IMG/VR virus record: IMGVR_UViG_3300042907_001596
Span: 64,001-128,000 of that record
Origin: a virus
DNA length: 64,000 nt
Reading direction: 5' to 3' (one strand)
The notes below the pieces were generated by a model. The model made no database searches, was not told the DNA's origin, and worked only from the letters and a program-made list of their open reading frames with translations. The translations under genes were made by a program, and so were the position numbers. Shown here piece by piece: positions 1 through 55,114 of the stretch. Each line of letters begins with the position of its first letter. The stretch's first letter is position 1.

Positions 1-1785
1 AAGATGCAGCGGCAGTACGAAGAGGCCAACGGTGGCCGACGCTCTCCGCGTGACGACGGCGGCGGCATGACAATTCCCCGGCCGACAATCCAGCAGCCGT
101 GCGTGTGGTGCGGCGAAGAGGCGAAGGGTCACAGCAGCGAGGGGCTGTGCAAGCAGTGCCTGAGTGAAGCGGGCAAGACGGCCCGCACCGCCATGCCGGT
201 GCCCCGCAGCGTGCCGTCCGGCCCCGGCACCTGGCAGAGGCAGCGCGACAAGCTCAACGAGAAGGCGCAGAAGGCCGGGGTGCCGGTCGAACTGACACCC
301 AACTTCTCAATGGATCAGGACGACTTCGATGCCCAGGCGTTCCAGCACGAAGAGGAGGGCCGACCCAACGGCTGGTACAACACGCCCGTCGAGTACGAAG
401 GCAAAGGCGTGCCGGGAGGGATCTCGCACCGCTACCTGGAGGTTGGCAACGCCAAGATCCCGGTGAACTATCTGCTGCACCACGGCGACGACGGCCGCAT
501 CAACGGCATCTTGTCGCACTTCCCCAAGGGCACCCCGTTTGAGAAGCCGGGGTCGGTCACCGTTACCGTGCATCCGCACCACCGGGATAAAGGTGTCGGG
601 TCGAAGTTGCTCAACACTGCCGTGGACAAGTTCGGTGTCGACCTCGACCAGCAGGAGTACACCCCGCTGGGCTACGAGCTTTATCGCAACGTCAAGCACC
701 AGCAGGGCGAGACGGTGCCCAACATCTTCAACGAGCCTGAGCCTCAGCCCAAACCGGCATTGTCTTCGGCCGAGATAGACGCAGAGTATGTCCGGCAGTG
801 GGCAAAAGGGATAAGGCCGAAGGTCACGAACAACGGCGTGCGGGAAGCTGCCCTCACGCCCGAAGACTATGCCGAAGCCAAGCGGCTATCGGCGTCGGGC
901 ATCGACCTTCCCGGCCTGAAAGCTCACCACGCCAACTGGGTGCTGAAGGAGAAGCCGATCAACCCGGCTACAGGCCAGCCTCACACACCGGAGTCAGCGC
1001 GAGGCCACTTCGGGTCAGGCATCTTCCCGTACCTGGCGGCGTTCTATCCCAATGCCACCCAGCAGCGGATGTTTGTGGATATTCCGGCGCACCAGCGCAC
1101 CCGCGACGAAGTTGTCAACGACCTCATCATGGACGACGGCAACATGGACAGGATGACGGCCGGGATGACGGCGCTGCATGCCGAACAGAACGATCAGCCC
1201 CACCTGGCCAACATGATCATGCGGATGCACAAATCTCTGGAGTTCCAACAGGACAAGTCTTCCCCTGAGCTACAGAAAATCATGGACGATGCTAGCTTCC
1301 TGCGGAAAGACATCCAGAAGAACGGGCCTGCGTTTGCCGAACAAATGGGCTACAGCTTTGCCCCCGACCCTGGCATGCCGGTCATGCCCGCCCCTGCCAT
1401 TCAGCCGCAACGCGCCCCGATGACGCCGCCGCGCCCGATGGCCCAACCGTTCGCCACCACCCCGATGCCCACCCCGATGCCGCAGCGCAACCCGATGCCG
1501 CAGCAGCCGCCGATGTCGGAGTCCGACGCGATCCGCCTGGAGATCCAGCGGGGACGAGCGGCCAGCGCCCACGAGCGCGACGAAGTGCGAACCCCGCCGG
1601 AGGACTACGTCGGTGAGCATCGCAAGCCGGAGAAGTCGCTGCCGAAGAAACTGCAAGACCGCTACGAGAAGTTTCGGACGGAAGACTTCTTCGACTTCCT
1701 CTACAACATCTCCGCCGCCCCCATTCCTGGGGTCACCGCGTCGCGCCTCACCATCGCCGCCGCCCTGGAGTCTTTGGCGGAATAA
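1..1785 (+). CDS. Modular polyprotein, 5'-truncated (tail of repeat domain, Cys cluster, GNAT module, unknown modules)
   Basis: Frame open from the window edge. Starts KMQRQYEE like the end of the repeat domain in 5898..9962. RTA|MP junction at 193; GNAT motif VHPHHRDKGVGSKLL. Confidence 0.85.
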   Translation, partial: KMQRQYEEANGGRRSPRDDGGGMTIPRPTIQQPCVWCGEEAKGHSSEGLCKQCLSEAGKTARTAMPVPRSVPSGPGTWQRQRDKLNEKAQKAGVPVELTPNFSMDQDDFDAQAFQHEEEGRPNGWYNTPVEYEGKGVPGGISHRYLEVGNAKIPVNYLLHHGDDGRINGILSHFPKGTPFEKPGSVTVTVHPHHRDKGVGSKLLNTAVDKFGVDLDQQEYTPLGYELYRNVKHQQGETVPNIFNEPEPQPKPALSSAEIDAEYVRQWAKGIRPKVTNNGVREAALTPEDYAEAKRLSASGIDLPGLKAHHANWVLKEKPINPATGQPHTPESARGHFGSGIFPYLAAFYPNATQQRMFVDIPAHQRTRDEVVNDLIMDDGNMDRMTAGMTALHAEQNDQPHLANMIMRMHKSLEFQQDKSSPELQKIMDDASFLRKDIQKNGPAFAEQMGYSFAPDPGMPVMPAPAIQPQRAPMTPPRPMAQPFATTPMPTPMPQRNPMPQQPPMSESDAIRLEIQRGRAASAHERDEVRTPPEDYVGEHRKPEKSLPKKLQDRYEKFRTEDFFDFLYNISAAPIPGVTASRLTIAAALESLAE

Positions 1786-5897: not shown

Positions 5898-8800
5898 GTG
5901 GTGATCAGACGGATCCAACGGCAGGCTGAGGCGTTCGCCTACCGGCTGGCTTTCCTGCCGTCGCACACCGACAGTGACGCGCCCTTCTGGCTCCAAACCA
6001 CGGAGATTCCTTCCCTCAACGAGTTCGACCACCCGGCGGTCAAGGAGTTCCAAGAGTTTTTAGATGCCGGTCTGGTGCCCCCCGACCCGAAGGAAGCCGT
6101 CGCGGAGTATCTGAACCATCTGCGCCCCGACAACCGAATCCACTACAACCTGCTGCGCAGATACGTCGGGGAGCCGGAACTGGACTCCTACCCGTACACG
6201 ATGACGCGGCCCCCCGCCCCCACTCTGCCCCACGAGCCGTACGCGGAAGTCACCTACCCTCAAGGGTACGAACTCGACTACGACGACCCCGAGCCTGGCG
6301 CTCACTACGCTGGGAGCCGCCACCCTTTTGACCGTGCGCTCGCCGCCGCCCGCTTCACCTTGGCGATGGCCGATACGACGATGTGGCACCCACGCATTGA
6401 GCAGGATCATCGGGACGGCCACGCCGGATGGCACGAAGGCACCTACCGCATCAAAGGGGACGACGGCAAAACCATCGGGGCTATGCAGTACAGCATGGTG
6501 CCCGAAATCGAACACCGGCCCGTCGACCGCCGCCCGCCGAAGAGCATCATCATCGACAAGGTGTTCGTCCACCCGCAGCATCGCGGGAAAGGCATCGCCC
6601 AGTCGTTCGTAGAGCGGTTACACAACGACTTCCCCGACTACAAGATCGACCCCGGCGCGACCACCACCCACGGCAACGGCTTCGCGGAGCATCTGCGCAA
6701 GATCCTCCCCGACGCGGAGCATGCACTGATTCCCGACTACACCCCGAACGTCATGGACGACCGGGCTTCGGACTTCTACGACCGCACCCAGCGCGGCTAT
6801 TACCGGGCTTATTCCGGCGACGAAGACAACGAAGAAATGGAGGAGCTAGAGGCCAACACCGCCCCCGAAGACGACATCGAAGACGACTACGACGCTCCGG
6901 CGCGGGAGATCACTCCCCCCGAAACCGAAGATCAGCTTCTTCAGCGCCTGCGCAACCAGTGGCCCGACGGGGTGATCCAGCATGCCGCCAGCGTTTTGCG
7001 CTACGCCGCCGCCCTCGTGGTGGATCCGCCCACCTTGGAGTGCAACCACCGCACGCCCTGCGCCCCCGGCACCTGCCCGCAGCGCGACATCGCCGCCGAC
7101 CCCGACTTCTACGCCGAGTTCCCCGACCCGGCCGACAAAGAGCGCGAGTTCCAAGACCTCTACCGGCTCCAGTACGAAGACGACGCCGCCGACGCCCGCG
7201 CCACCAACCGGCCCTCAGCGGTGGAGAAAGCGGAGATCCTGCCGCCCGCCCAGCCCGCCCGCGACATCCTCACCGAGTTCGTCAAAGAGCGCGGCCGACG
7301 TAATCGCCGCCCGATCGTCATCACCTGCCCCGACTGCAAGGGGCACCGCTACGAGACGATCCAGCCGGGACAATTGCGGGCTGACGATTGCCGAACCTGC
7401 AAAGGTGAGGGCAGTTTCGTCAAGCCTAGCGTGGAAGAAAAGCTGCGCCCTTGGGCGGAGCGCCTGGAGAACGCCCTTTACAACGAGTTCATGGAGTGGT
7501 GGCCGCAATCGGAAGCCTCGCGGATCCGCAAGCCCGAAGGGTCTGGCACCAAGTGGGAAGACCGCCCCAAAGAGCCGGTCACGCACTGGCTGAACGTGGA
7601 GGACTTCCTCAAGGAGCGGTATCCCGACGCCGCTACGGGGGCGAACTACGGCGGCGAAGAAGCACAGAACCTGCTGGAGCGGGCCATCCAAGAAAGGCCC
7701 GACCCGAAGTGGCTGGAGGAGCGCGGCTACGTCGGTTACGGAAACCCCGTCACCCAAGCCATGCTGACGTTGCACAACCGGTTCAATCTACGTCCTTGGC
7801 GCAACAAAGAGGATCGCCGCCGGTATTACGAACTGATGCTGCGCCACGTCGGGCCGGGAGCCGCCCAGCGGCAAAAGGTGGCAGCGTCAAGTGAGCATTA
7901 CGAACCGATGGACGACGACTTTCTGGACGGTCTGCGAAAGCAATTTGACGAGTGGGCGGCAACCAGCCCCGACGTTGTCAATCCCGATCCCGACGGTCAG
8001 CCTCGCGGCCCGGTCGGTCATTGGCCGAATATCGAAAAGTTCTTCCAAGAGAAATACCCGGCAGCCTATAAAGGCTTGAGCCGTGGCTTGGAGAGTGCCG
8101 TCCCCGCTTTGGACAGTGACGCCGGAGATTACTGCCCACACTGCACCGGCGAGGGGTACTTGCTAAACGAGAACCCGCACCCCGCTGACCTTCCGAGAAA
8201 ATGCCTCAGTTGTAGCGGCACCGGGAAGATCAACGACGATCTGGTGTACGAAACCGGCCCCGACGCCGAAGCCAAGTATGGCTACGACCCGAAGGCTGTC
8301 GCCGCCGGTCTGCTGTATCTGCATAGCGAGTCCCATCCGTATCGGTTCCACATGCGGCAAGAAGACCACAACCGGCTCACCGACATCTTCCAGAAACGCA
8401 TGAAGATGCAACGCCAGTACGAGCAGCGCACCGCCGCCCCGAACCGCACCGAGCCGCTGTCTTCCTCGCCGGACACCGACAGCATCATTTACGGCCTCAG
8501 CAGCGAGTTCGATGAGTGGGCGAAAGCGAACAACAAAGGCAACCCGTACGACCACCGCGTCCTCACCACGCCGAGGGATCTGGTACCCAAGAACTGGAAG
8601 CCTCGCGGCCCGGTGGGCTACTGGCCCAACATCGAAGAGTTTATGAAGGAAAGGTATCCGGCCGCGCACCGTGGGTTGTCAATGGGCTTTGAGGACGCCG
8701 ACCCGCTGCTGGATAGCGGTGGGAAGCACGAGGACGGCACCGACCTGGAGTGGCTCGTCGGCAAGGATCCGTACGAGACGGGGCCGGAGGCTGTCGCTAA

Positions 8801-9962
8801 ACACGGCTACGACCCGCGTGAGATCGCGGCCACCCTGCTGCTGTTGCACAACGACACCCACCCCGGCCGGGAGAATTACCTCAAGAGCGACCAGGCCCGT
8901 CTGCTCGACATCGCCCAGAAGCGACACCAGATGCAGCAGGCGTATGAGGAGAAGCAGAAGGTCGCTGCCTTTCCCTACACCCCTGTGAGGGGCCGTCAAA
9001 ACTTCAGTCACCCGCTGGTCGACACGATCGGCAAAGAGTTCGATGACTGGGCCACCGCTAACGGTGCGGAAAACCCCAACGATCACCCTGACTCCCTAGG
9101 ATATTGGGGCAAGCCTCGCGGGGCCATCGGCTATTGGCCCAACGTCGAAGAGTTCCTAGAAGAGAACTACCCCGAAGCCCACCGGGGCTTGGAGATGGGC
9201 CTGGAGGGGGCCGGATCCCTGCGGGACTACGGTGCGCCGTCCGGCATGGTGCTGGCCCCCGATGACTATGAGCCGCCCGAAGATCTCATGGACTACGCGC
9301 CCTACCCTCCCGAATACGCCGAATACGAGACGGGCGCGTGGGCCGAAGCCCAACACGGCTACGACCCCAAAGAGGTCGTGACGGCACTGCTGCTGCTGCA
9401 CAATCAGACCCACCCGCACCGGTGGGAGCAAGTCAACGCCGACCAAGACGTGCTGATGGACATCGCGCAGAAACGCCACAAAATGCAGAAGGCGTACGAC
9501 GAGCGCATGAAGACCGCCGCCCAACGCACTTGGCACCAACACCTCGCCTCCATCAACCGGCTGGGTGCCGAACTGTCCGACGCCGACGCCGCCATGCTCT
9601 ACGACCACATGCAGAAGCTGTTCCAGCCCATCAAGCCCTCCGGCAAGTGGTACCACGTCTCCCCGCACGCGCTGGCCGACGGCACCGACCTGATCCCCGG
9701 CGGCGGAGACTCCCCCTCCCAATCCTTCTACGACGACGGCTGGGGTGAGGACACCGGCACCCTCACCGACATGGGCCAGGGACGCACCGGCCATGTGTGG
9801 TTGACGCCGGATTTGGACGACGCCCACTTCTGGTCGGCAGCCCTGAGCGCCCCGCACATCTACGAAGTGGATCCGCACGAGGATCCCCGGCCGTGGAACG
9901 GCACCGGTGCCGACGGCTGGGTCGTCCCCGGCGCGAAGATCCGCCGCAAGGTCATCGAATGA
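5898..9962 (+). CDS. Polyprotein A: leader, GNAT, Zn-finger, 4 novel repeat domains, Arr-like ADP-ribosyltransferase (start likely GTG 5901)
   Basis: GNAT VFVHPQHRGKGIAQ; CPDCKG..CRTCKG; repeats YETG..A...HGYDP; ART WYHVSPHALADGTDLIP..HVWLT..IYEVDP. Modules joined at RLA/TLA/KVA/RTA/KTA. Confidence 0.9.
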   Translation: MVIRRIQRQAEAFAYRLAFLPSHTDSDAPFWLQTTEIPSLNEFDHPAVKEFQEFLDAGLVPPDPKEAVAEYLNHLRPDNRIHYNLLRRYVGEPELDSYPYTMTRPPAPTLPHEPYAEVTYPQGYELDYDDPEPGAHYAGSRHPFDRALAAARFTLAMADTTMWHPRIEQDHRDGHAGWHEGTYRIKGDDGKTIGAMQYSMVPEIEHRPVDRRPPKSIIIDKVFVHPQHRGKGIAQSFVERLHNDFPDYKIDPGATTTHGNGFAEHLRKILPDAEHALIPDYTPNVMDDRASDFYDRTQRGYYRAYSGDEDNEEMEELEANTAPEDDIEDDYDAPAREITPPETEDQLLQRLRNQWPDGVIQHAASVLRYAAALVVDPPTLECNHRTPCAPGTCPQRDIAADPDFYAEFPDPADKEREFQDLYRLQYEDDAADARATNRPSAVEKAEILPPAQPARDILTEFVKERGRRNRRPIVITCPDCKGHRYETIQPGQLRADDCRTCKGEGSFVKPSVEEKLRPWAERLENALYNEFMEWWPQSEASRIRKPEGSGTKWEDRPKEPVTHWLNVEDFLKERYPDAATGANYGGEEAQNLLERAIQERPDPKWLEERGYVGYGNPVTQAMLTLHNRFNLRPWRNKEDRRRYYELMLRHVGPGAAQRQKVAASSEHYEPMDDDFLDGLRKQFDEWAATSPDVVNPDPDGQPRGPVGHWPNIEKFFQEKYPAAYKGLSRGLESAVPALDSDAGDYCPHCTGEGYLLNENPHPADLPRKCLSCSGTGKINDDLVYETGPDAEAKYGYDPKAVAAGLLYLHSESHPYRFHMRQEDHNRLTDIFQKRMKMQRQYEQRTAAPNRTEPLSSSPDTDSIIYGLSSEFDEWAKANNKGNPYDHRVLTTPRDLVPKNWKPRGPVGYWPNIEEFMKERYPAAHRGLSMGFEDADPLLDSGGKHEDGTDLEWLVGKDPYETGPEAVAKHGYDPREIAATLLLLHNDTHPGRENYLKSDQARLLDIAQKRHQMQQAYEEKQKVAAFPYTPVRGRQNFSHPLVDTIGKEFDDWATANGAENPNDHPDSLGYWGKPRGAIGYWPNVEEFLEENYPEAHRGLEMGLEGAGSLRDYGAPSGMVLAPDDYEPPEDLMDYAPYPPEYAEYETGAWAEAQHGYDPKEVVTALLLLHNQTHPHRWEQVNADQDVLMDIAQKRHKMQKAYDERMKTAAQRTWHQHLASINRLGAELSDADAAMLYDHMQKLFQPIKPSGKWYHVSPHALADGTDLIPGGGDSPSQSFYDDGWGEDTGTLTDMGQGRTGHVWLTPDLDDAHFWSAALSAPHIYEVDPHEDPRPWNGTGADGWVVPGAKIRRKVIE

Positions 9963-12900
9963 GGCCCATCCTCCGCCAGCGCGACACCTTCGCGTATCGC
10001 ATTGCCGCGCCGGTCAACCAGAACGTCGTCACCCGACTGAATGACGAGTTCCACCAATGGTGGAAGGACAGCGGCTACACCTGGGATCCGTACGAGCGTG
10101 GTACGGCGAGTGAGGACTACGAGCGCGGCCCGATGGGGGACTGGCCGACCATTGAGGAGTTCCTTGAGGAACGCTATCCCGCCGCCCACCGTGGACTGAT
10201 GATGGGGCAAGAGATCGCCCGCCCCCTCCTCGACGGTGTCGGGCGGGACGAGGAAGCCTTGGGACGATGGGACTCTAATCCGCAGACTCAGCGCAACTTC
10301 AACATGCTCCAGGTGACCCACGGCGACAACGTCCCGCCGTACGAGACGGGGCCGGAAGCGCAAGCCCAGCACGGCTACGACCCCCGCGAGGTGGCGGCAG
10401 CTTTCCTGCTGCTGCACAACAAGACGCACCCGCTGCGCGGCTATCGGGCCGGGGAAGACCAAGCCCGCCTGGACGAGATCGCCCAGGCCCGCAACGCCGA
10501 GTTCGACAACGCCGACATCGACGTGCTGCACGACATCGCGCAAAAGCGGACGAAGATGCAACGCGCCGCCATGCCAGCCGAAGACGCCTACGACAACGCC
10601 TACAAGAGCCAGGGGCACGTTCCACGACCTGTTTCGGTTCAGGGGCCGTGGTATCACGGCACCAGGGAGGATCTGCCGGACGGCACCATCCTTGTTCCTA
10701 GCCCAGACAAAAGCCTGTGGAGGTACTTCGATCGGCCAGGAAAAGAAAACCGTGCCGACTGGGTCTGGATGGACACCGACGCCCACATCGCTAAACAGTT
10801 CAGTAAAGGCGGTCACGTCTATGAGGTAGAGCCGCTGGACGAAGGGCCGTGGGAGTGGAACGGCGGCATGTTACCCGCTGGTTACGCTTCGCCTCGCGCA
10901 CGGATCATCCGAAAAGTGCATACCTATGTGCCGCAGTTGCAGGCCGACGAAGATGGTCAGTTCGGGTGGAAGCGCATCGCCATGCCCGCCCCGGCCCCCA
11001 AGGGTCTGCGCTTTGAGTATGACCCCAACTTCATCCACCCTCACGCCGACTACCTAGGCCGAGTCCAGGCTTACGTCGATGACCATCCGGTCGGCCACCT
11101 GGAGTGGCTGAAAGAAGGCAACCCCCTCAGCATGGTCACCGACCGCAAGCCCGGTGAGGTCAGCTTCATCTACGTCCACCCTAATTACCGCCGCCAGTCC
11201 ATCGCCAGCGAGATGTTCGACTGGGCTAAGGAGAACGCCGCGCCGGATTTGCACCACTCGCAGCGCCGTACGGACTTGGGTGACAAATGGGTCGGCTACG
11301 AGCAGCAGCGTGTCGCCGCCGTAGCCGACGACACCATCGACCGCCTGCGCGGAGAGTTCCACGACTGGTGGAACACCGACGGAACTTCCCCGAAAAAGGG
11401 TCAACCCCTTTGGACTCCCGTCTCCTCCAGAGAAGCCATGGGCTACTGGGGAAATATGGAGCGGTTCCTGTCGGCCCGGTATCCGGCGGCGTCCCGCGAC
11501 AGCCTGTATATGGGCATGGAGCAGGTGGAGCCGCTGCTGCATCAGCGCGACGGCCAGTGGGGTGGTGTGCCCCGCAATGCTGACCCTTACGAGACGGGCC
11601 GGAAGGCTGTCGAAAAGCACGGCTACGACCCGGCGGAGATCGCCGCCGGGATGCTGTATCTCCACAATGATGGTCGTCCCGGCCGGGAGCAATTCCAGCA
11701 CGTCAACCGCAACCTCATCTTAAAGATCATCCGCAACCGGCGCAAAATGCAGAAGGAATACGACAGCAAGCCCCGCCAGCTTGAGCTTCCATTGGACGAC
11801 ACCCTCGACAAGGCTGCCGCCGTCTTAGACTTCGCCTCCCGGCTGGCTATGCCCGCCGAAGACGCCTACGACGGCAACTGGAAGAACCGCAAGACCAGCC
11901 CGCCGGTCGTCGGGCCGTTCTACCACTCATCCGATCACGACCTACCGGACGGCACCATCCTCCTCCCCAACCAGGGGGAGTCGAAGTTCACCGACGACTA
12001 CGAGCGGCGTCCCGGCTGGAAAGAGCGCACCAAGTGGGTGTGGATGGAGCTTGACCCCTCCGGCGGGTGGGGTGAGCACACCTACGAGGTAGAGCCGATG
12101 GATGAAGGGCCGTGGCCGTGGAATGGTGACGGTCGGGCTAACGGCTACACCTCTCCTCGCGCCCGCATCATCCGCAAGATGACGCCCGAAGATCAGCAAG
12201 AACTGATGGACGCTTTTGTCGACCGGATGCACGAAGAGAATCGTCAACGAAGTCAAAACAGACCACGGCAAGTTCGCCTCTACACCCGCACCGCCATGCC
12301 CGCCCCTCTACCGGAGGGCATCACCTTCCACTATCACCCCGACGACAGCACCATTCCGGCGGAACACTACGACGACTTTTATGCACCTGCGATTGAGGCC
12401 CGCCACCACGGCAACTACGTCGGGCACCTGAGTTGGACTGACGGCAGCCCCGAAGACGGTGGCAGGCCGGTGGGCGAAATCAACGGCATTATGGTCAAGC
12501 CCGAATATCGACGCCACAGTGTGGCGACGGCGATGTTCGATTACGTCCGGCAACAGCACGAGCCTGCGATCCACCATTCGGGATTCCTAAGCGCAGATGG
12601 CCGATCGTGGCGTGACTATGAAGAATCTCGCCATAAGACGGCGATGCCCGCCCCTCTGCCGGACGATGTCACCTTCAAGTACCACCACACCAACGACTCC
12701 ATCCCCGAGGGATACAACGGCGTCAACCAAGGCGGATCCCACACCTTCCTCGCCCCCGCCGTCGCCGCGTATAAAAACGACAAGCCGGTCGCGTACGTCG
12801 AATGGTGGCCGACCGACAAGTACCCCAACGCCGCCAAGCACTACCGCTTCATGGACAAAGGCAAGCCGGGGGAGGTGTACTACATCTACGTCCACCCCAA

Positions 12901-13891
12901 CCATCGCCGCAACTCCATCGCCAGCGAGATGTTCCGGTGGGCGAAAGACAACGTCGAACCGGATCTGCACCACTCCCCGAAGAAGAGCGAGCTAGGCACG
13001 AAGTGGGTGAGCTACGAGGAGTCCACGCCGGAGCTTGCCCGCGCCGCCGCCGTGATCCGCTACGCCCAGCAGGTGGTGGCGATGCCGCTCAATCACATCC
13101 CGCCGATGAACCACTTCGATGACCGGCTGTTCAAGAAGCAACTGGACAACCTGCACTACTACGGCGACGAGATCACCGGGAAGCCGGATCGTGCCAATCT
13201 CATTCGCAGCCAGGGCGGCAGCACCATCAACACCGCCGGGGAGCATGCAGTCTTCGTGTCGTTTATCCACCACGACGAGAACGGTGCCCCCACCGGGATC
13301 CTGCACTACTTCCCGACCGGCAGCCGGTCGGCTAAGGAAAAGCCCGGTGGGATTCAGGTGCTGGTGCATCCCGCCCACCAAGGCAAGGGTATCGGCTCCA
13401 AGCTCCTCGACGCCGCAATGGCGGAGTACGGCCCCGAAGCGGAAGGATTCGGTGACTACGTCCCCATCGACCTGGACAACCAGAATGTCACCCCCGGCGG
13501 CAACGCACTGATCCAGCGGTACCTCAAGCGCACCGCGATGCCCGCTGTCGACGCCTACGACAGCAACATCCCCCGCAAGAAGCGCATCAGCGATCCATAC
13601 ATCCCTAACGGGCCGTGGTATCACGGCACCGACCATGACCTTCCAGAGGGAACCGTTCTGACTCCCGGCGGTGGACACTCCAGGTACACCGACACCCTCT
13701 ACAAGCGGTGGCCGCACAAGAATCGGGCGAAATGGGTGTGGTTAGCCCCCAGTCCCGACCTCGCCAAGCGGTGGGGGGAGCACATCTACGAGGTGGAGCC
13801 GGAAGTCGAAGGCCCGTTCCCTTGGAATGGGGACGGCGATATGTTCACCGAGTTCGCCACCCCTCGTGCTCGCATTGTGCGCAAGCTCTGA
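9959..13891 (+). CDS. Polyprotein B (1310 aa): leader, repeat, ART, GNAT, repeat, ART, GNAT, GNAT, GNAT, ART
   Basis: ATGA overlap with polyprotein A. Module-start Met after x-x-A at 10571, 10982, 11849, 12296, 12644, 13082, 13538. Motifs GPWYHGT, GPFYHSS, YVHPNYRRQSIAS. Confidence 0.9.
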   Translation: MRPILRQRDTFAYRIAAPVNQNVVTRLNDEFHQWWKDSGYTWDPYERGTASEDYERGPMGDWPTIEEFLEERYPAAHRGLMMGQEIARPLLDGVGRDEEALGRWDSNPQTQRNFNMLQVTHGDNVPPYETGPEAQAQHGYDPREVAAAFLLLHNKTHPLRGYRAGEDQARLDEIAQARNAEFDNADIDVLHDIAQKRTKMQRAAMPAEDAYDNAYKSQGHVPRPVSVQGPWYHGTREDLPDGTILVPSPDKSLWRYFDRPGKENRADWVWMDTDAHIAKQFSKGGHVYEVEPLDEGPWEWNGGMLPAGYASPRARIIRKVHTYVPQLQADEDGQFGWKRIAMPAPAPKGLRFEYDPNFIHPHADYLGRVQAYVDDHPVGHLEWLKEGNPLSMVTDRKPGEVSFIYVHPNYRRQSIASEMFDWAKENAAPDLHHSQRRTDLGDKWVGYEQQRVAAVADDTIDRLRGEFHDWWNTDGTSPKKGQPLWTPVSSREAMGYWGNMERFLSARYPAASRDSLYMGMEQVEPLLHQRDGQWGGVPRNADPYETGRKAVEKHGYDPAEIAAGMLYLHNDGRPGREQFQHVNRNLILKIIRNRRKMQKEYDSKPRQLELPLDDTLDKAAAVLDFASRLAMPAEDAYDGNWKNRKTSPPVVGPFYHSSDHDLPDGTILLPNQGESKFTDDYERRPGWKERTKWVWMELDPSGGWGEHTYEVEPMDEGPWPWNGDGRANGYTSPRARIIRKMTPEDQQELMDAFVDRMHEENRQRSQNRPRQVRLYTRTAMPAPLPEGITFHYHPDDSTIPAEHYDDFYAPAIEARHHGNYVGHLSWTDGSPEDGGRPVGEINGIMVKPEYRRHSVATAMFDYVRQQHEPAIHHSGFLSADGRSWRDYEESRHKTAMPAPLPDDVTFKYHHTNDSIPEGYNGVNQGGSHTFLAPAVAAYKNDKPVAYVEWWPTDKYPNAAKHYRFMDKGKPGEVYYIYVHPNHRRNSIASEMFRWAKDNVEPDLHHSPKKSELGTKWVSYEESTPELARAAAVIRYAQQVVAMPLNHIPPMNHFDDRLFKKQLDNLHYYGDEITGKPDRANLIRSQGGSTINTAGEHAVFVSFIHHDENGAPTGILHYFPTGSRSAKEKPGGIQVLVHPAHQGKGIGSKLLDAAMAEYGPEAEGFGDYVPIDLDNQNVTPGGNALIQRYLKRTAMPAVDAYDSNIPRKKRISDPYIPNGPWYHGTDHDLPEGTVLTPGGGHSRYTDTLYKRWPHKNRAKWVWLAPSPDLAKRWGEHIYEVEPEVEGPFPWNGDGDMFTEFATPRARIVRKL

Positions 13892-29295: not shown

Positions 29296-31530
29296 ATGGA
29301 CGCACCGACAAGGAAGATGTACCGGGGGCTGAGGCTGAACAACCTCCCGCCGGAACTGCTGGAACACGTTAAGCGGCACACGCGCATGCCGTACGACGAG
29401 TCTGAGGTCGGCCAGCACTTCAAGATCGGCCCCGTCCTGCTCGACCACATTGAGAACAGCCACCACGACCCCGAACTCAGCCTGGGTCAGAACTGGACGA
29501 TCAACAGGGACTTCGCGGGGAAAGCCGGATGCTCGCAGACCGGCCCCTGCCAGCTAGGCGTGGTACTAGAAGCTGACATCCCGACCGACGAGCACAGCTT
29601 CGACCCCAAGAATAGGGGGCAGAACCCCGGCACAATGCAGTCAGAGCAGCAGGTCACCATCCTGCCGGATGTGCCGCTGAACATCACCGGACTCAAGCTG
29701 GTGGGGTATGGCAACGGTGGCCCCGGCGGACACGATCTAGAAGTCCTCAACGACCCCCGCTATGTCACCCGCCAAAAAGAGTTCCCCAGTGTCGCCCAGT
29801 TCCATTCCGGCCCGCAGATTCGGATCGCCTACCTCCGCAACAAGACCGCTGCACGCGGCGTCCCCGGCTACAACCTGGACGACTGCGAGCCGTCCGGTCG
29901 CTACCTGACCGCCGACACCATCCCCAACCAGCCCGCCCCCGCCGGGTGGGAGCGCGGCACCGTATCTTTCGTCAACCCGCTGCGCTTAGAGCATCTGCAC
30001 GGCGGCTGGCGGCAGGCGCTGTCGGCGCACTACGACGGGCGCACCGGGAAGGAACTCACCGCCAGCCTGGTGGCCGACGGCTACGACGGCATCATCACCG
30101 CCGACCATCACGGCTACGGCGAGATCGTCGCGTTCAGCCCGCCGACCTACAAGAAGCTGGATCTGAAGATCCGCTACCCCGAAACCATCAGGGATCCGCA
30201 GAAGGACACCAGCGACTACAACTTCACCGGCAGCCCCGAAACGCAGTACCACCACCGGGCGCTGGACGACGACGACTTAGAAGACATCGACACCCGCAAA
30301 GACAGCGCAGATGACTGGTATGCCGAGATGGCGACCCGCCGCGCCCAAGGGCTGCCGGAGATCGACTGGAACACCTGGATCAACAAGCGGATCTCGTATC
30401 GTCTCGCCATGGCGTGGGATGAGTGGGCACCGAAGGTTAAAGGCGGCTGTCTGCTGGACGGTTGCTACTGGGACAAAAATGGTGGCAACGACAGTCGCTA
30501 CACCATCCCCCAGGCCGGTGCGTTCCTCCATTACAGTCACGGACAGCGGTGGGGCAAGCCTGCACTGAACGTCATCGGCATCTACACCCACCCCGACAAC
30601 CGCAACGACGGCGTAGCCGAAGCGTTGATGCGGCGGCTCGCCGAAGACCATCCCGGCGTCCACATCGACACCGGCTACATGACACCCGACGGCCAACGCT
30701 TCCACGACCGTGTGCTGGAGAAGGAGCCGTCTGCGCGGGAACTCGTGACAGCCGTGCGGTTGGCCATGGCCTGGGATGAGTGGAAAGACAAGATTCAGCA
30801 CCATGAATATGGCGATGACTTTCTTCAAGGAACAGACAACACTGGAACGTACAAGATTGACCACGGCCCAGACCCCGATGAGCCAGACTTTACGCATGAG
30901 TCATGGCTCAATTACGGATGGGGCCGGGACGACAATGGAGAGCCAGTATTAGATATTCACGATTTAGGTACTGCCGCGCCATTTCGTAATCGTGGAGTAG
31001 CTGAAGCACTGATGCGAAGGCTACATCAAGATAACCCAGGTATCCGAATTAACCCCGGCGGCATGACCGATATGGGCCAAGCCTTCCATGACCGGATGCT
31101 GGAGAAGGAACCCGACGCCCGCGCTTTGGTCACCGCCGCTTCCCTGCTCGTCGGGCCGTATGACGCTTACGACGAAAACGACTGGTTCCAACGCCATATG
31201 GATCATCCGCCCCTGGAGAACCCCGACACCGCCGACTGGTACCACGTCTCGCCGCACCGCATGCAGGTCGGCACCATCCTGGCCCCGATGCGCGGCGAAA
31301 CACCGTGGGATGACGAACCGTACGACAACGGCTTGCAGAACCGGGCCAACTGGGTGTGGATCGAATACGACGAGCGCAAAGCCCGCGAGTGGCAGCAGTG
31401 GGTTCTCAAGCACCAGCCGCAATGCCACCTCTACCGGGTGCAACCCCACCTTGGCCCGTTCGCCTGGAACGGTACCGCCGACGAAGGCTGGGTCACCGAC
31501 TGGGCCGAGATCCTTGAGGAAATGACCTGA
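29296..31530 (+). CDS. Polyprotein C: ART-like (YRG), ART-PolyVal-like, 2 GNAT, Arr-like ART
   Basis: MYRGL...NWT...SEQQV; GYDGII...GEIVAF; RLA|MAWDEW twice before GNATs (RNDGVAEALMRRL, RNRGVAEALMRRL); WYHVSPH...WVWI...LYRVQP...WNG. Confidence 0.85.
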   Translation: MDAPTRKMYRGLRLNNLPPELLEHVKRHTRMPYDESEVGQHFKIGPVLLDHIENSHHDPELSLGQNWTINRDFAGKAGCSQTGPCQLGVVLEADIPTDEHSFDPKNRGQNPGTMQSEQQVTILPDVPLNITGLKLVGYGNGGPGGHDLEVLNDPRYVTRQKEFPSVAQFHSGPQIRIAYLRNKTAARGVPGYNLDDCEPSGRYLTADTIPNQPAPAGWERGTVSFVNPLRLEHLHGGWRQALSAHYDGRTGKELTASLVADGYDGIITADHHGYGEIVAFSPPTYKKLDLKIRYPETIRDPQKDTSDYNFTGSPETQYHHRALDDDDLEDIDTRKDSADDWYAEMATRRAQGLPEIDWNTWINKRISYRLAMAWDEWAPKVKGGCLLDGCYWDKNGGNDSRYTIPQAGAFLHYSHGQRWGKPALNVIGIYTHPDNRNDGVAEALMRRLAEDHPGVHIDTGYMTPDGQRFHDRVLEKEPSARELVTAVRLAMAWDEWKDKIQHHEYGDDFLQGTDNTGTYKIDHGPDPDEPDFTHESWLNYGWGRDDNGEPVLDIHDLGTAAPFRNRGVAEALMRRLHQDNPGIRINPGGMTDMGQAFHDRMLEKEPDARALVTAASLLVGPYDAYDENDWFQRHMDHPPLENPDTADWYHVSPHRMQVGTILAPMRGETPWDDEPYDNGLQNRANWVWIEYDERKAREWQQWVLKHQPQCHLYRVQPHLGPFAWNGTADEGWVTDWAEILEEMT

Positions 31531-34045: not shown

Positions 34046-34060
34046 ATGAGGAGGATGAGC

Positions 34061-35710
34061 GTGGCGAGACGGATCCAGCGGCAAGCTGAAGTGTATTCCT
34101 GGCGTACCGCCGACCCGGTGTGGCGTCGGGTCGCACGCTTCCCCGTCCCGGCGGAGTGGGCCAGCGACCCCGAGATGCAAGGTACCCTCGCCGCCCCTCG
34201 CGGGCACAGCGGCAGGCGCTGGGACGAACACATCCAGAACCTCGACACCCTCCTCAACGAGTACCACGACAACAAGATCGACAGCCGGTCGATGTTCGGC
34301 CAGCACGACCCGATCACCAAAACCACCCGGTGGAACGCCGACCGGGTGAAGATGCACCAAGACATCGTCAACGAACTCGTCGCGCAGATGGCGAACATCC
34401 CCCGGCAGAAACGGGCCATCCTGATGGCCGGACTGGGCGGGGCGGGCAAAACCTGGGTGCAAAACCAGCCCTTCTTCGGGGTGGATGCGAAGCAGTTCTT
34501 CGTCCTCAGCGCCGACAACATCAAAGAGATGATGGCCGCACGCGGCATGATGCCCACCGCGAAGCACGACCCGCGCTTTGCCGGACACTCCCCGATGGAA
34601 TTGAGTTCCCTCATCCACCTGGAGTCCGACGAGATCGCCAAGCGGGTCGCGGAGATCGCCACTGAGCAGGGCACCAACGTCATCTGGGACTACCGGATGG
34701 CCAACCTGCCTTCGGCACTAGAGCGCATCGGCCGGTTGCGCAGCAACGGCTACAAAGACATCGGGGCGTTCCTGGTCAACGTCGACCCGCAACGGGCACT
34801 GAAGTCCGCGATCAGCCGACACAAAGACGGCCAACAGGCGTGGCTGGACTCCGGCGGGTCGGATCCGGCGAAGCAGGGTGGCCGTTGGCTACCCAGTTTT
34901 GCCCACCATGAAGGCAGCCCCACCCCCGGCTCCGGCATGATGAGCAGCAGCCAGGAAGCGTTCAACCAACTCATCACTCAGCACGCCGACCTGCTGCCGA
35001 TGGGGTACGGCTCCATCGACAACCGGGTGCGCGGCAAGCCGGTGTTCCAAGGCGGCAGCGGACAGTGGGCTAACCTCAACATTCCGCAGGGCCACCCCGA
35101 CACCCTGGCCCCGACACCACCGACGCCGACGCTGGTCAGCGCGAGGAGATGGTTCATGGCCGACGAGCACAACCTCTACGAAACTGACCCATACAGCGTG
35201 CGCGGAATCCTCAACGCCTACAGGGCCGAGCAGATCGACTACCCCACGTTGGTGTCGGAAATCGTCAACCGATTCATGGCGATCACCCCGATTGCCGACG
35301 ACCCGGCCCGCGCCGGATGGTCGCAGTACATGCACAGCGAAATGATGCCGGGGGACGACGACGGCTTCTGGTTGTCGTGTGCTGTCAGCTTGGGCGTTCT
35401 GACTCCCGAGCAGCTAGATGAAATCCTCGACGCCATCCACCAGTCCGTCCACAACGAGCCGCCGCCGGTGCGTCAAGCCAACTCCGTCACTGTCAACTAT
35501 CCGGCCGAGTCGGTGGTGTATCACAGCAACTACATCAAAGCCGTCGGGGATCAACTGGTGGAGTGGTTCGATTCGCGCCGCCAGCCGGGGGAGACGATCG
35601 ACCACTTTATGAAGCAGTACGCCTCCAACCCTGACGAGGTGGCTGTCGCCAAGCCGTATGTAGAGCGTTTTTTGGGGCGCACTGACATCTATCCCCAATC
35701 CGGCGTGTAG
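34061..35710 (+). CDS. Leader-bearing zeta-toxin-like P-loop kinase fused to extra modules (alternative starts 34046/34055)
   Basis: MAGLGGAGKT Walker A, SADNIK, HLES, NVIWD, GGRWLP; leader MARRIQRQAEVYSWRTA. Confidence 0.85.
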   Translation: MARRIQRQAEVYSWRTADPVWRRVARFPVPAEWASDPEMQGTLAAPRGHSGRRWDEHIQNLDTLLNEYHDNKIDSRSMFGQHDPITKTTRWNADRVKMHQDIVNELVAQMANIPRQKRAILMAGLGGAGKTWVQNQPFFGVDAKQFFVLSADNIKEMMAARGMMPTAKHDPRFAGHSPMELSSLIHLESDEIAKRVAEIATEQGTNVIWDYRMANLPSALERIGRLRSNGYKDIGAFLVNVDPQRALKSAISRHKDGQQAWLDSGGSDPAKQGGRWLPSFAHHEGSPTPGSGMMSSSQEAFNQLITQHADLLPMGYGSIDNRVRGKPVFQGGSGQWANLNIPQGHPDTLAPTPPTPTLVSARRWFMADEHNLYETDPYSVRGILNAYRAEQIDYPTLVSEIVNRFMAITPIADDPARAGWSQYMHSEMMPGDDDGFWLSCAVSLGVLTPEQLDEILDAIHQSVHNEPPPVRQANSVTVNYPAESVVYHSNYIKAVGDQLVEWFDSRRQPGETIDHFMKQYASNPDEVAVAKPYVERFLGRTDIYPQSGV

Positions 35711-50855: not shown

Positions 50856-53800
50856 GTGGCTGACGTTTTTGAGGTGTTGACCGCCTCTGAGTCCGAGCAG
50901 AGCATCGCGAAGAAAGCAGCGGCCGACACCCTCGCCGCCGCGATCTACGACGTACGCGAGCAGTTCGGGGAGCATCTGTTCATCGCCAAGAGCAAAGACG
51001 AGTTCCACGACCGTCTGGCCTTGTGCAAAGACGACATGATGAAGACGGTCAACGCTCACCTCATGCCGGTGACCGGCGTGATGCGCCGGGTCTGCAAGAC
51101 GATGGAGCGCGAATGGCGTGAGCGCACCGCCAATCGTCCGCTGCACGAGATCGCCCGCGACATCAAGACCAACTGGCCGAAGGTCAACTACGCCGCCCAG
51201 CCGTACTTAGATGCCCTCCACGAACTGGAGAGCGTCGATGATATGTACTACGCGGATCCGGCCAGCCATATCGTCAACTACTTCCTCTCCAACGCCAGAT
51301 CGTGGCGCGGGCCGGAAGCCAAGCGCATCAAGGACGAACTGAAGGGCTTGGTCAGCCGCCGCGCCAACCGGCTGGCCTATTCCGACGAAGAGTTGGAAGC
51401 CTACAAAGAGACGGTGAGCAGCGACGAGAAGCCGCCGCGCCCGAAAGCCAAGCCGTTCCCCGACACCGACGGCGAGTGGAAGAAGGCCGACAACACCGGC
51501 CCGGTGCAAAGCCTGGAGCAGACCTACTCCCCCTCTGACGGCCCGCTCGTCCCCGAAGGTGACTTCCACGCCTACCAGAACTCCGTCGACCAGAACGCCG
51601 ACTCGACGGTGTCGGGAAACTTCACTCCCGGCGAGGACTCCGGCTCCGACAAGCACGGCTACCGCACCGCCAACGAGGTGATGGGGTACCCGGCCGACGG
51701 CGGCATGCCCGACGCAGGCATGGCGACTCCGCCGCCCGCTCCCGGTATGGATCCGACCACCGGTGCGGGCATGGTTGCCGCCCCGCCAGGAACCGGCGGC
51801 AGCGGCCCCGAAATGATGACCGCCGCGATCATCAAGCGGTATGCCCAGTGGTGTGTCGCCAACTTGGCGCGGCCGTCGGTGCAGACGCTGGAGTATTACG
51901 CCGCCAACCGTCCCGACCTGGACTATTTCGTCCTGACGGCGGCGTTGCAGAAGCACGCTGAAGTTCCCGGTGGTTCAGCATCGGAGGGGCTTGGTCATAT
52001 CATTAACCCCTTTGAGCCATCCCCTGAACCCAAGGCTCTTGATCCGAACCCCTACGCTGGCCTGACCATCCCCGAAAACTTCGATTACAGTGGAGGCAGC
52101 GGGGGATCAACCGGCCAGTTTACGGGTGCCTACCTGAAGCTGTGCCGCCAACAGGGTGTTCAGCCAACGCTACAGGGCTACCAGCGTTTTGCTAACCTCC
52201 ATACCGCCGCCGGTAAGGGCAAGGACTACCTGCTGCAAGCCGACGAGGCCATCACCAACCTGCTCAACGAGAAAGCTGAAGAGTTCCAAGAGAGCATTAC
52301 GCCGCTCCAGCAGGCACTCCAGACCATCCAGTACGCGGAGCAGGTGCAGCAGGCGCAGAACCCGATGGGCGTCATGCCTCCGGCCGGAACCGTCAACGTC
52401 ATGCCCCAGACCCAAGGCCCCGCAGGGCCTGCCCCGGCGGGTGTAGATCCGTCCGGCCAGGTCGACCCGGCGATGCTCGCCCAGCTTATGGGCATGGGTG
52501 GCGGGGATCCGTCGCAGATGCAGGATCCCAACGCAGGCATCCCTCCGGCAGCCGCCCAGCAGGGTGCGGTGCCGCCGGAGATGCAGATGCAGGCTCGCCG
52601 TCGCCGTGCGCAGATCAGCTTGTCTGATGTCCGCATCGAAGACCGGGGTGCCGGTCTGTGCAGCGGGACAGACCCCGCCGGTCACCGGGTGATGTTCCAG
52701 GCTTCGCCGGAAGACATGAAGGATCTCCTGCATGTGATGCAGGGCGACCTGGCCCAGAACTTCTCTGGGGTGTCGGTGGATGAAGAAGACATTGTCGATA
52801 TGGGGCCGCAGGAAAAGGTTCCTTCCCACGGCGAGCAGGATCCTTACGGTGGCGGTGATGGCGACATCAACCGCAGCTTTACGGGAACCCGCCGCACCGC
52901 CAGCAGAACTTCCGACCTCATCGCGGAGTACGAAAGCACTCCGCACGACGACGTGAAGAGCTTTGAGCTTGAGGAAGCCATCCACCGTCTGGCGGAGCAA
53001 GGTGACCCCGAAGCCCTCGCGTTCCTGAACGGTCACGACGAGCAGGCTCACGACGCGGAAGGGCACGACTACCCTCCGACGGGACACATGGCCCGCCGAC
53101 GCACCGCCATGCCGATGACCGAAGACGGCTACGACGGAGGTGACGGCTGGGTTCCCGGCCAGGACTTCGATCCCCATGATCCAGACGAGATGGAAATCAT
53201 GGAGCACATCTGGGAAGGCGAAAAGCTGAACCGGATGCAGCAGCTTGAGGAAGAGAACGCGAGACTGCGCAGTCAGCTTGACCCCGGCGGTGAACGTCAG
53301 GACTACGAGAACTATCACGATAACCACCGTGAGGGTGCCGTCTCCGAACTGGGCTACCCCGAACCCGAAGAGGGCTTTGAGGAAAACCACAAGAAGGTAC
53401 GCAAAGAGAACGACTGGCCAGAACCGGAGTCGCGCTCAAGCGAAAAGCGTGGTGGTCGGGGAAAAGCACGAGGGGCCGCTAGGCCCCAGAGCCGGGGCCG
53501 CACCGCCAGCGGCGACCTGGGCCACTGCCAGATGGGATCGGGCTGCGGCAACCAGGCCGACCTGACCTTGCCGCTGCGCATCCTGGGGGATGTGCCGTTC
53601 TGCCGCCCCTGCGCAGAGCGGTACGTCCGCGTCAAAGACCGCTACCGCAAAGAAACCCAAGAGAAGAACCGGGCGCAGCAGAAATCCGGCGGCATCTTGG
53701 AGGAATGGCAGAAGTGGCAGCAGCGCCGCAGCCAAAGCGGCAAGCTGGGTATCGGCGGAGACAAAGACATTGAGGACTTCGCCGCCGAGCGCGGCTACGG

Positions 53801-54767: not shown

Positions 54768-55114
54768 CCGTGTGCTTCACCTGTAAGCATCTGCGGGAGA
54801 TTGTCCACACCGACGAACTGGAGCGGGGCTTCTGCGCCCAGTGCTACCGGCCGTCGTGGGATCTCCTCTTCGCCAACAGCTTCATGGCGCTGACCGTCCC
54901 CTTCGCGGTGGGCGATCGGGTGCAGTGCCGCACCGCCGGAGTGATCTACGACGGCATCGGCGTGGTGGAGGAAGTCTCCACCGACTTGAAGGACGGAGGA
55001 ACCTGGGTGTATCCGGCGTTCCGCGTCCGCTTCGATGAGAAGGCATACTCATCGGTGCCCGACGTGCAGTTGTACACCGAAGCCTGCCTGACGAAGGTGG
55101 GCAGCGATGAGTGA
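54764..55114 (+). CDS. Zn-ribbon plus SH3-like small protein
   Basis: CFTC...CAQC; VGDRVQC. Confidence 0.65.
   Translation: MTVCFTCKHLREIVHTDELERGFCAQCYRPSWDLLFANSFMALTVPFAVGDRVQCRTAGVIYDGIGVVEEVSTDLKDGGTWVYPAFRVRFDEKAYSSVPDVQLYTEACLTKVGSDE

Follow-up and report, generated by a model that had tools for sequence, protein, structure and literature searches.

Modular proteins and their leaders

The window is a stretch of 64,000 nucleotides (positions 64,001 to 128,000 of IMG/VR virus record IMGVR_UViG_3300042907_001596) from an uncultured actinophage of 150 kb related to the Bxz1-type mycobacteriophages. The virus record includes genes for the portal, the terminase and the capsid. The window encodes large modular proteins, here called N, A, B, C and D, all on the plus strand. 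Polyprotein N is represented by its C-terminal 594 aa (1..1785); the complete product has 1069 aa, its gene beginning 1424 nt ahead of the window. Polyproteins A (5898..9962, 1354 aa) and B (9959..13891, 1310 aa) are coupled by an ATGA overlap that places the ATG of B on the stop codon of A, confirming an earlier note on this DNA, which had described two coupled frames of ~1300 aa. Polyprotein C (29296..31530, 744 aa) is flanked by minor-tail genes. Protein D (554 aa), a leader followed by a Zeta-toxin-type P-loop kinase, is encoded upstream of the endolysin gene at 34046..35710; the stop is as given in the earlier note, and the start lies at 34046 rather than at 34061. The N, A and B genes are located ~45 kb upstream of the head genes and the portal, outside the structural block; polynucleotide kinase and Ku-like genes come after them.

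Polyprotein B contains nine modules from three families (four GNAT, three Arr-like and two W). After a leader of residues 1-16 (9959..10006, ending FAYRIA↓, the arrow marking the joint) come W1 (10007..10570, ending QRAA↓MP), Arr1 (10571..10981, KRIA↓MP), GNAT1 (10982..11317, QRVA↓A), W2 with a short helical spacer (11318..11848, SRLA↓MP), Arr2 (11849..12295, TRTA↓MP), GNAT2 (12296..12643, HKTA↓MP), GNAT3 with a spacer (12644..13081, QVVA↓MP), GNAT4 (13082..13537, KRTA↓MP) and the C-terminal Arr3 (13538..13888). Polyprotein A begins with a basic leader (residues 1-18, 5898..5951, ending FAYRLA↓), followed by an unassigned domain with a GNAT, a DnaJ-type Zn finger and four W copies: a divergent one within 7449-7883, and three canonical repeats at 7884-8435, 8436-8966 and 8967-9518 that end KVA↓A, RTA↓A and KTA↓A, respectively. 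An Arr-like ADP-ribosyltransferase module (9519..9959) forms its C-terminus. The order in N is leader, unassigned domain, two W modules, Zn ribbon, RTA↓MP (193), GNAT-like module and a Met/Pro-rich tail. In C, two N-terminal modules without assignment precede two GNAT-like modules, both beginning after RLA↓MA (30409, 30766), and a C-terminal Arr-like module.

The four GNATs of B score 29.9-33.3 bits each against Pfam PF00583 (cut-off 20.7) and the GNAT of A 26-28 bits, while residues 120-262 of D match the Zeta toxin family PF06414 with 39.1 bits (cut-off 22.3). The Arr-like modules of the window reach 13 bits (E 0.12) against PF12120, below the gathering cut-off of 25 bits, and their profile matches ARR-2 in the PDB weakly (E 0.18), in an alignment that spans the GPFYHGT stretch. 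Homologous segments of the proteins P0021, P0027, P0037 and P0041 reach 26-30 bits with PF12120, and their matches to the window modules have E values between 1e-20 and 1e-12. The NAD-site motifs of the Arr family, G-P-[FW]-Y-H and Y-x-V-E-P, are present in these modules, and Y28, H29, Y84, E85, V86 and P88 are invariant across the four copies in the window. W, a helical repeat of ~170 aa, is a new helical domain. The GNATs above the Pfam cut-off, the Arr-like modules and the W repeats bear out, for B, the claim that the chains are strings of discrete modules.

A basic leader of 16-22 residues, ending in the motif found at the joints, is common to N, A, B and D. In N, A and B it has the form RRIQRQ..FAYR-x-A; the form in D is ARRIQRQ..SWRTA, which covers residues 1-22 and ends SWRTA↓D. 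Homologues contain three leader families, all with an R/H-x-A end, and short leader-plus-module proteins among them carry FAYRxA↓MP at residue 15-16.

The peptide at the joints

The A↓MP joints of N and B given above, QRVA↓A at 11318, TLA↓MA at 6366, the two RLA↓MA joints of C and the KVA↓A, RTA↓A and KTA↓A joints of A had all been located correctly in the earlier note, which proposed [R/K]-x-A↓M-P as a joint code. The [R/K]-x-A part of this code holds at eight of the nine module boundaries of B, against 17 occurrences of [RK]xA in all 1310 aa (binomial P = 7e-15), and it fails at QVVA↓MP, the sole B boundary without R/K at P3. All seven [RK][LTIV]A tripeptides of B are at module boundaries. 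We note that [RK]xA by itself is common; the motif that carries information is A-x-R-[LT]-A with M-P, A, G or S after it. The upstream R-x-A is the same after W, Arr and GNAT modules. The enrichment at boundaries that the earlier note proposed to test is seen in B. A point against a cleavage code is that the interior of modules shows no clear depletion of R[LT]A.

A total of 109 distinct A-M-P contexts were collected from 37 metagenomic homologues, with the consensus A-x-R-[L/T]-A↓M-P. P3 is R in 84 contexts and K in 11, P2 is L in 40 and T in 37, and P5 is A in 47. R[LT]A occurs 149 times in the homologues, compared with 28.5 expected by shuffling, and is followed by M (72), A (37), G (8) or S (7), by Leu once and by Val never. 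The right-hand flanks of the junctions fall into at least 23 unrelated clusters. The junction codons vary synonymously, which places the constraint on the peptide. Homologues of the GNAT cassette are preceded by A↓MP in 48 of 85 cases and by x-T-A↓G in 23 of 85, which means that the Ala is kept and the next residue changes. These observations support the view, from sequence comparison, that the joint peptide is selected rather than a product of chance.

Close relatives carry B-like modules (91-99% identical) in reshuffled order, with breaks exactly at the junction, in agreement with the idea of an expandable payload. These breaks are also compatible with joints that are cassette boundaries and are left uncut, the proteins working as whole multidomain polyvalent proteins. 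Each module would then descend from a separate gene, with the Met-Pro of the old start and a conserved helix end at the C-terminus still in place, and the repeated joint would be recombination microhomology or a flexible linker. Modules are gained, lost and reordered precisely at the joint among relatives of 80-94% identity, and the solo homologues P0200, P0222, P0223 and P0272 begin with MPxPLPE at residue 1, so the junction Met could be left over from an old start codon. Packaging without processing is known for some polyvalent proteins, among them the N4 vRNAP (PMC5512222). However, the synonymous codon variation, the R-x-A kept after three unrelated module families, the replacement of Met by Gly in other clades with the Ala retained, and the motif at the end of the short N-terminal leaders all speak against this explanation, as does the motif in non-modular head proteins and at the boundary of the protease itself in relatives (see below). 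We consider uncut joints unlikely. It is unusual for a protease to require the almost constant Met-Pro that follows the Ala, and this counts against cleavage by the prohead protease, as does the boundary of this phage's own protease, which reads R-P-Q-A instead of R-x-A.

The protease at 62022 and the head genes

The gene for the putative prohead protease starts at 62022 (62022..64000 in the window, plus strand) and runs to 65495, encoding the protease fused to a scaffold-like tail of considerable length; next is the capsid gene, at 66076 in window numbering. The protease domain spans residues ~45-218 and contains His88, Ser141 and a Cys3His insertion. Across 21 homologues of 45-76% identity, His88 (FVNH) and Ser141 (SVSMG) do not vary; by motif position, they probably correspond to the catalytic residues of gp21. 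In an AF2 model of the protease (pLDDT 81), VIA comparison gives Z 10.3 and an rmsd of 2.5 Å over 133 residues to T4 gp21 (5jbl) and Z 8-10 to the VZV, PRV, HSV and HCMV proteases, compared with Z 5.7 for the next fold class. According to the model, the product is a protease of the T4 gp21/herpesvirus assemblin fold, and the serine of the S-M-G motif that the earlier note had singled out is the invariant one. No match to Pfam Peptidase_S77 or Peptidase_S78 was found at E <= 1 in the whole genome, and the only profile matching the protease was PHROG 18299 'head maturation protease' (E 2e-21). In 13 of 20 relatives, [KR]xA lies 15-19 residues past the protease core, at its C-terminal boundary.

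Assemblin-fold proteases read P3-x-P1: the cleavage sites are (V/L/I)-x-A↓S for assemblin, (L/I)-x-E↓ for T4 gp21 and (S/A/G)-x-E↓ for phiKZ gp175. The P3-x-P1(Ala) pattern of the junctions fits this clan.

The motif is also enriched in the proteins whose genes lie in the neighbourhood of those for the portal, protease and capsid; R-T-A is ~6x over-represented in these proteins. Compared with its five permutations, RTA is found 14 times versus ~2 in head proteins and 5 versus ~1 in the polyproteins, with no over-representation in all other proteins of the genome (21 versus ~15). Enrichment of [RK][LTVI]A is likewise limited to the polyproteins and the head-block proteins. A 1303-aa protein encoded upstream of the portal gene (50856..54767, plus strand) contains 11 such tripeptides versus 2.4 expected, and a PHROG family begins, at the family's own position 1, after RRRTA↓MP at residues 751/752. 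The 1270-aa head-block protein (58156..61968, plus strand) contains 7 versus 2.0 expected, and the portal protein (55107..57503, plus strand) has RGRTA↓S at residue 14. In the capsid protein, R-x-A is conserved at residues ~13-16, although the N-termini vary. The same pattern of RTA is seen in the cluster C phage BananaFence (gp77, 82, 87, 95 and 96) and in 26 related loci (106 versus 21-45). The fold of the protease, the P3-x-P1 logic of proteases of this fold and the motif enrichment in the head block together make cleavage by the prohead protease the best reading of the joints.

The joints might instead be cut by a protease other than the prohead protease, either from the host or an unrecognised phage enzyme in the cytoplasm, and their processing would then be independent of the capsid. 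Such an enzyme would suit the position of the N, A and B genes outside the head block and the boundary of the phage's own protease, which has no canonical R-x-A, and a peptidase could be hidden in one of several modules without assigned function. Nevertheless, no further peptidase domain was detected in the polyproteins, the motif enrichment tracks the head-gene block here and in relatives, and the P3-x-P1(Ala) pattern suits the assemblin clan, making this source of cleavage quite improbable. It is highly improbable that the ATG at the joint serves as an internal translation start, giving separate proteins from one mRNA in addition to or in place of the long chains: Met is near-invariant at many joints and solo homologues start there, but no Shine-Dalgarno-like ribosome-binding sequence was found before the junction ATG, Val never and Leu only once follows R[LT]A although GTG is a common start in this high-GC genome, Ala, Gly or Ser replaces Met at many joints, and the upstream R-x-A and the motif in head proteins would have no explanation.

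Proposed cargo system and comparison with known systems

Based on the junction sequences, the protease model and their comparative analysis, we give cleavage at the joints by the capsid (prohead) protease a probability of roughly 55%. N, A, B, C and D would be polyvalent cargo proteins, arrays of independently folding cassettes comprising RimI-like GNATs, Arr-family ADP-ribosyltransferases, a Zeta-type kinase, Zn ribbons and the W domain. The cassette joint A-x-[R/K]-[L/T/I/V]-A↓M-P (or ↓A, ↓G, ↓S) would be the recognition site of the 62022 protease, which may read P3 and P1 and cut after the Ala. The basic leader may act like the T4 capsid-targeting sequence, bringing the precursor into the prohead before being removed, and maturation would yield ~25 pieces of 110-350 residues that leave with the DNA. 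Because all cassettes carry the same ends, recombination at the joints could add, delete and reorder them. Cleavage, protease identity, packaging, injection and enzyme targets are all parts that we infer. The location of the N, A and B genes outside the structural block counts against this proposal. Only tentatively do we suggest that this dsDNA phage lineage follows a genuine polyprotein strategy based on a portable code, in which a basic leader of 16 residues and flanking A-x-R-[LT]-A↓M-P allow any cassette to be loaded, released by the capsid protease and injected, with joint recombination driving the turnover of the arsenal (~25 pieces per virion type) between near-identical phages.

Should the joints be cut in the prohead, actinobacterial hosts would receive at infection a large collection of acetyltransferases and Arr-type ADP-ribosyltransferases whose composition changes rapidly by reshuffling. 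Injected proteins of Bxz1-type mycobacteriophages would become predictable from a sequence rule made up of the leader and the junction peptide, a so far uncharacterised branch of assemblin-fold proteases would have its specificity defined, and the orphan helical domain, with ~8 copies, would be a major internal head component. A literature search for virion proteome or N-terminal data on cluster C-type phages found none. Bxz1-type mycobacteriophages are easy to grow on M. smegmatis, and virion proteomics of cultured relatives could test the prediction directly.

The earlier note had presented a candidate new system, which does not stand, since multi-enzyme phage cargo and T4/phiKZ-like prohead processing are both already known. 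Prohead-protease processing of packaged proteins is known in T4 and phiKZ-like phages. In the herpesvirus assemblin precursor, as here, a protease of the same fold is N-terminal to a scaffold or scaffold-like tail, Ala occupies P1, and the junction between protease and tail carries a site (here in most relatives). The R and M sites of the herpesvirus precursor are (V/L/I)-x-A↓S; P3 is thus aliphatic there and basic here, and the substrates here would include separate multi-enzyme chains.

In phiKZ and SPN3US, head and ejection proteins are processed by the gp175-type protease at (S/A/G)-x-E. Numerous large head-associated proteins with repeated copies of one short P3-x-P1 motif are a feature shared with the present phage; in phiKZ and SPN3US, cleavage within the head gives several fragments of such proteins, and the ejection-protein mass is large. 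The lineage, motif and cargo differ, and the putative cargo here consists of swappable arrays of recognisable enzymes.

T4 IPI-III and Alt resemble the proteins described here in being several cargo proteins with a short leader at the N-terminus, closed by the protease motif, in including an ADP-ribosyltransferase, and in the gp21 fold of the protease (Z 10.3). The leaders of N, A, B and D would be, by analogy, a shared targeting peptide of the T4 type, although they have no sequence similarity to the T4 capsid-targeting sequence. The T4 cargo is single-module with the motif (L/I)-x-E↓ and its packaging is proven, whereas up to nine modules per chain with internal [R/K]-x-A↓ sites are found here, and packaging is a prediction.

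The 'polyvalent proteins' of phages and conjugative elements are multi-enzyme cargo with two to fifteen unrelated effector-type domains per polypeptide, as described in Iyer et al. 2017 (PMC5512222). B has nine modules, and the other four chains contribute a Zn finger, the Zeta kinase and modules without assignment. According to that paper (PMC5512222), ADP-ribosyltransferase, GNAT, Zeta-like kinase and ParB domains (the last here in homologues) occur in single polypeptides, delivery with DNA is predicted and domains are widely shuffled among related phages, all as here, and solo RimI-like GNATs are found among the late genes of the cluster C phage Alice. The polyvalent ADP-ribosyltransferases belong to the Tox-ART-HYD2 clade, in contrast to the Arr type here, and processing is proposed there mainly through embedded peptidase domains (MPTase; assemblin-like at the C-terminus), of which none is present here. 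The word 'linker', a conserved junction peptide and a shared leader were not found in the passages of PMC5512222 examined; the A-x-R-[LT]-A↓M-P code and the N-terminal leaders distinguish the present proteins from polyvalent proteins as portrayed there. The system is a clade-specific variant of the known polyvalent and internal-protein cargo.

Polyproteins of enzyme modules and helical repeats

The virus record is 150,440 bp long with 63% GC, of which the window covers bases 64001-128000, and almost all of its genes are encoded on a single strand. The portal protein shares 56-61% identity with its counterparts in cluster C (Bxz1, BananaFence, Tonenili) and cluster AA mycobacteriophages, and the capsid protein shares ~81% with that of phage Cali. 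These identities place the uncultured source phage among the Bxz1-type myoviruses of actinobacteria. Neither near-identical DNA nor close protein relatives were found in the phage collection or IMG/VR.

Polyprotein A (5898-9962, 1354 aa) and polyprotein B (9959-13891, 1310 aa) are coupled, with the terminal TGA of A overlapping the ATG of B as ATGA. A third polyprotein, N (1069 aa), starts 1424 nt upstream of the window, and the open reading frame at 1..1785 is its end. B contains, in order, a basic N-terminal leader, a helical repeat (W), an ADP-ribosyltransferase-like (Arr) module, an acetyltransferase (GNAT) module, W, Arr, three GNATs, and Arr. Each of the four GNATs passes the Pfam cut-off. 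Against Pfam Arr-ms the Arr-like modules reach only 13 bits, but they retain the G-P-W-Y-H and Y-E-V-E-P motifs and match, at E 1e-20, homologue segments that do pass the Arr-ms cut-off. W occurs in eight copies of ~170 residues each across N, A, and B. Its structure model is all-helical (pLDDT 72) and has no structural neighbour; W has no Pfam family, no sequence match in the PDB, and no Foldseek match in the PDB or BFVD, and a feature search of the ESM Atlas gave nothing usable. Judging from the model, W remains an orphan all-alpha domain.

Several further features were observed in and around these chains. One W repeat of A carries an inserted Cys-x2-Cys ... Cys-x2-Cys element (8100-8230, aa ~735-775) absent from the other copies, and a separate DnaJ-type CxxCxGxG finger is located at aa 473-509 of A. 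The tail of N contains a low-complexity stretch rich in Met, Pro, and Glu (1200-1500, about aa 880-970, with runs of M-P, P-M-P, and E-E-G-M). Directly downstream of B are polynucleotide kinase-like (13942-14385) and Ku-like DNA-end-binding (16873-17664) genes.

Conservation of the junction peptide and the leader

The modules are connected by a peptide of the form A-x-[R/K]-[L/T/I/V]-A↓M-P, or with A, G, or S after the proposed cut (↓). The earlier note proposed that the polyproteins are packaged, cut after this Ala by the protease encoded at 62022, and injected. Every junction coordinate it listed proved correct, and the enrichment it expected at the boundaries of B is present: [RK]xA ends 8 of 9 (P = 7e-15), and every one of the seven [RK][LTIV]A tripeptides of B is located at a boundary. 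In B the identical R-x-A follows all three kinds of module, W, Arr, and GNAT.

A search with B yielded 37 multi-module homologues, several on contigs of ~146-154 kb. Among their 109 distinct A-M-P contexts, P3 is Arg in 84 and Lys in 11, P2 is Leu in 40 and Thr in 37, and P5 is Ala in 47, often with an additional H/R-T-A shortly upstream. R[LT]A occurs 149 times in the homologues versus 28.5 in shuffles, and is followed by Met (72), Ala (37), Gly (8), or Ser (7). Clustering of the right-hand flanks gives at least 23 groups, and the junction DNA shows synonymous variation in the Arg, Ala, and Pro codons. These comparisons indicate that the junction motif is under selection at the peptide level. 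Depletion of R[LT]A within modules was not clearly seen. One GNAT cassette was used as query in an exhaustive search, which recovered 85 embedded copies; A↓M-P stands before 48 of them and x-T-A↓G before 23, so the Ala is retained and the next residue varies by clade. We note that four giant metagenomic proteins (P0165, P0168, P0190, and P0206, 3303-4739 aa) each contain this GNAT cassette 4-11 times, with x-T-A↓G before one copy in P0165; such proteins look like far longer versions of these arrays.

Relatives with modules 91-99% identical to those of B show module deletion, insertion, and reordering; alignments of the B modules to these relatives all begin at the first residue past the joint, and the first W repeat is followed by the first GNAT in one homologue (P0011) and by the first Arr in B. 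As the breaks fall at the joints, the payload is reshuffled there between relatives.

The leader RRIQRQ..FAYR-x-A opens N, A, and B, and a related one, ARRIQRQ..SWRTA, opens the multi-module protein D, which starts at 34046. The pI of these leaders is 11.5-12, against about 4.6-7.8 (acidic to near neutral) for most predicted pieces. Homologue leaders are of the RRIQRQ type, S-W-G-L-W-G-L-H-T-A, or ..E-L-L-S-P-W-R-T-A, all with the motif at their end, and some short homologues consist of a leader and a single module only. The same layout is found in cluster C proteins BananaFence gp82 and ScoobyDoobyDoo gp74, and in Gordonia phage Pupper gp109.

The prohead protease and the head-gene block

The N-terminal 233 residues of the 62022 product match the PHROG family 'head maturation protease', and the Pfam S77 and S78 models gave no match. 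The structure model of this domain (pLDDT 81) aligns with T4 gp21 at Z 10.3 (2.5 Å over 133 residues) and with herpesvirus assemblins at Z 8-10, the next fold class being at Z 5.7. His88 and Ser141, the latter being the S-M-G serine singled out in the earlier note, are invariant among 21 homologues. The same holds for a Cys3His insertion (Cys-x2-Cys ... Cys-x-His; C151, C154, C165, and H167, aa 149-170) that follows the catalytic Ser, precedes the last strands, and is probably a zinc ribbon; a phmmer search of the PDB returned only spurious zinc-finger matches to this insertion. A [KR]xA lies 15-19 residues past the protease core in 13 of 20 relatives (R-P-Q-A in the source phage), and at this boundary the protease would be expected to release itself from its scaffold-like tail. 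The tail carries a Met/Pro/Glu-rich stretch similar to that of N (genome 127.8-128.0 kb, about aa 610-660). A 193-aa protein encoded at 14412-14993 matches positions 523-601 of PHROG 2774, the family to which the protease-scaffold fusion belongs, and may be a detached copy of a segment of the scaffold tail.

Across the whole genome, [RK][LTVI]A is over-represented (observed versus expected counts) in the polyproteins and among the products of the genes surrounding the portal gene: in a 1303-aa protein at 50856 (11 versus 2.4), a 1270-aa protein at 58156 (7 versus 2.0), a protein at 48357 (5 versus 1.4), the protease fusion (7 versus 3.5), and the capsid protein (3 versus 0.7). Elsewhere only a few short reading frames, and no other large proteins, are enriched. 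A permutation control for composition gives, in head-block proteins, 14 occurrences of R-T-A versus ~2 per permutation, and in all other proteins 21 versus ~15. BananaFence gp77, 82, 87, 95, and 96 are enriched likewise, and across 26 related, partly redundant loci R-T-A occurs 106 times versus 21-45 for permutations. Straight after RRRTA↓MP in the 1303-aa protein, a match to a PHROG family begins, at position 1 of that family. At residue 14 the portal protein reads RGRTA↓S, and at residues ~13-16, preceded by variable N-termini, the capsid protein retains R-x-A (occasionally R-x-S). Searches of the literature on cluster C, Myrna, or E3 phages yielded no usable virion proteomics or capsid-protease cleavage data, and the Myrna capsid paper gives none on cleavage; a jumbo-phage capsid paper shows only that the related phage G trims its capsid protein from 282 to 255 aa.

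In three more distantly related IMG/VR contigs of 85-87 kb (GC 54%; protease 52-53% identical), the large head-region reading frames lack R-T-A and the protease boundary reads K-D-A↓R; by sequence, the junction code may differ along with the protease.

Readings of the joints and comparison with known systems

We favour, at a probability of roughly 0.55, the reading that the joints and leaders are putative prohead-protease sites and the chains are predicted capsid cargo. Against it, the structural block does not include N, A, and B, which neighbour the polynucleotide kinase and Ku genes, and the near-invariant Met-Pro could be a start-codon relic, since solo homologues have M-P at residue 1.

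A possible but clearly weaker contender is that the joint is an uncleaved cassette linker or a recombination joint. Cassette exchange and cleavage are compatible, not exclusive. It is unlikely that the joints are cut by a protease other than the prohead protease. Proteases of the gp21/assemblin fold recognise P3 and P1, namely (V/L/I)-x-A↓S for assemblin, (L/I)-x-E↓ for gp21, and (S/A/G)-x-E↓ for phiKZ gp175, and [R/K]-x-A↓ fits this pattern by analogy. A complex prediction for the protease domain with a 51-residue B junction segment scored 0.02 with the verdict 'no answer', the method being uninformative here. Internal translation initiation at the joint ATG is highly improbable, weakened by the lack of a Shine-Dalgarno or other ribosome-binding-site-like sequence upstream of that ATG at the DNA level, by Val never and Leu only once following the motif, and by joints with Ala, Gly, or Ser in place of Met. 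Ribosome arrest of the SecM/ApdA type by R-x-A-M-P was also considered and rejected, as the spacing is unlike and many joints lack Met-Pro.

In T4 and phiKZ-type phages, packaged proteins are processed by the prohead protease, and the same processing is predicted for the polyproteins of the window under the favoured cleavage reading. Together with polyvalent proteins, this means that the concept is already known, and the 'candidate new system' of the earlier note is not new in that respect. Iyer et al. 2017 defined polyvalent proteins and remarked on solo GNATs encoded by late genes of cluster C (PMC5512222). Word searches for 'linker' in that paper gave no match and its passages considered here mention no junction peptide, whereas a junction code is present in our polyproteins. 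What is new is this defined junction code with its leader in Bxz1-type actinophages, the arrays of Arr-type ADP-ribosyltransferases and GNATs without an embedded peptidase, and, from sequence comparison, direct evidence of cassette exchange at the joints.
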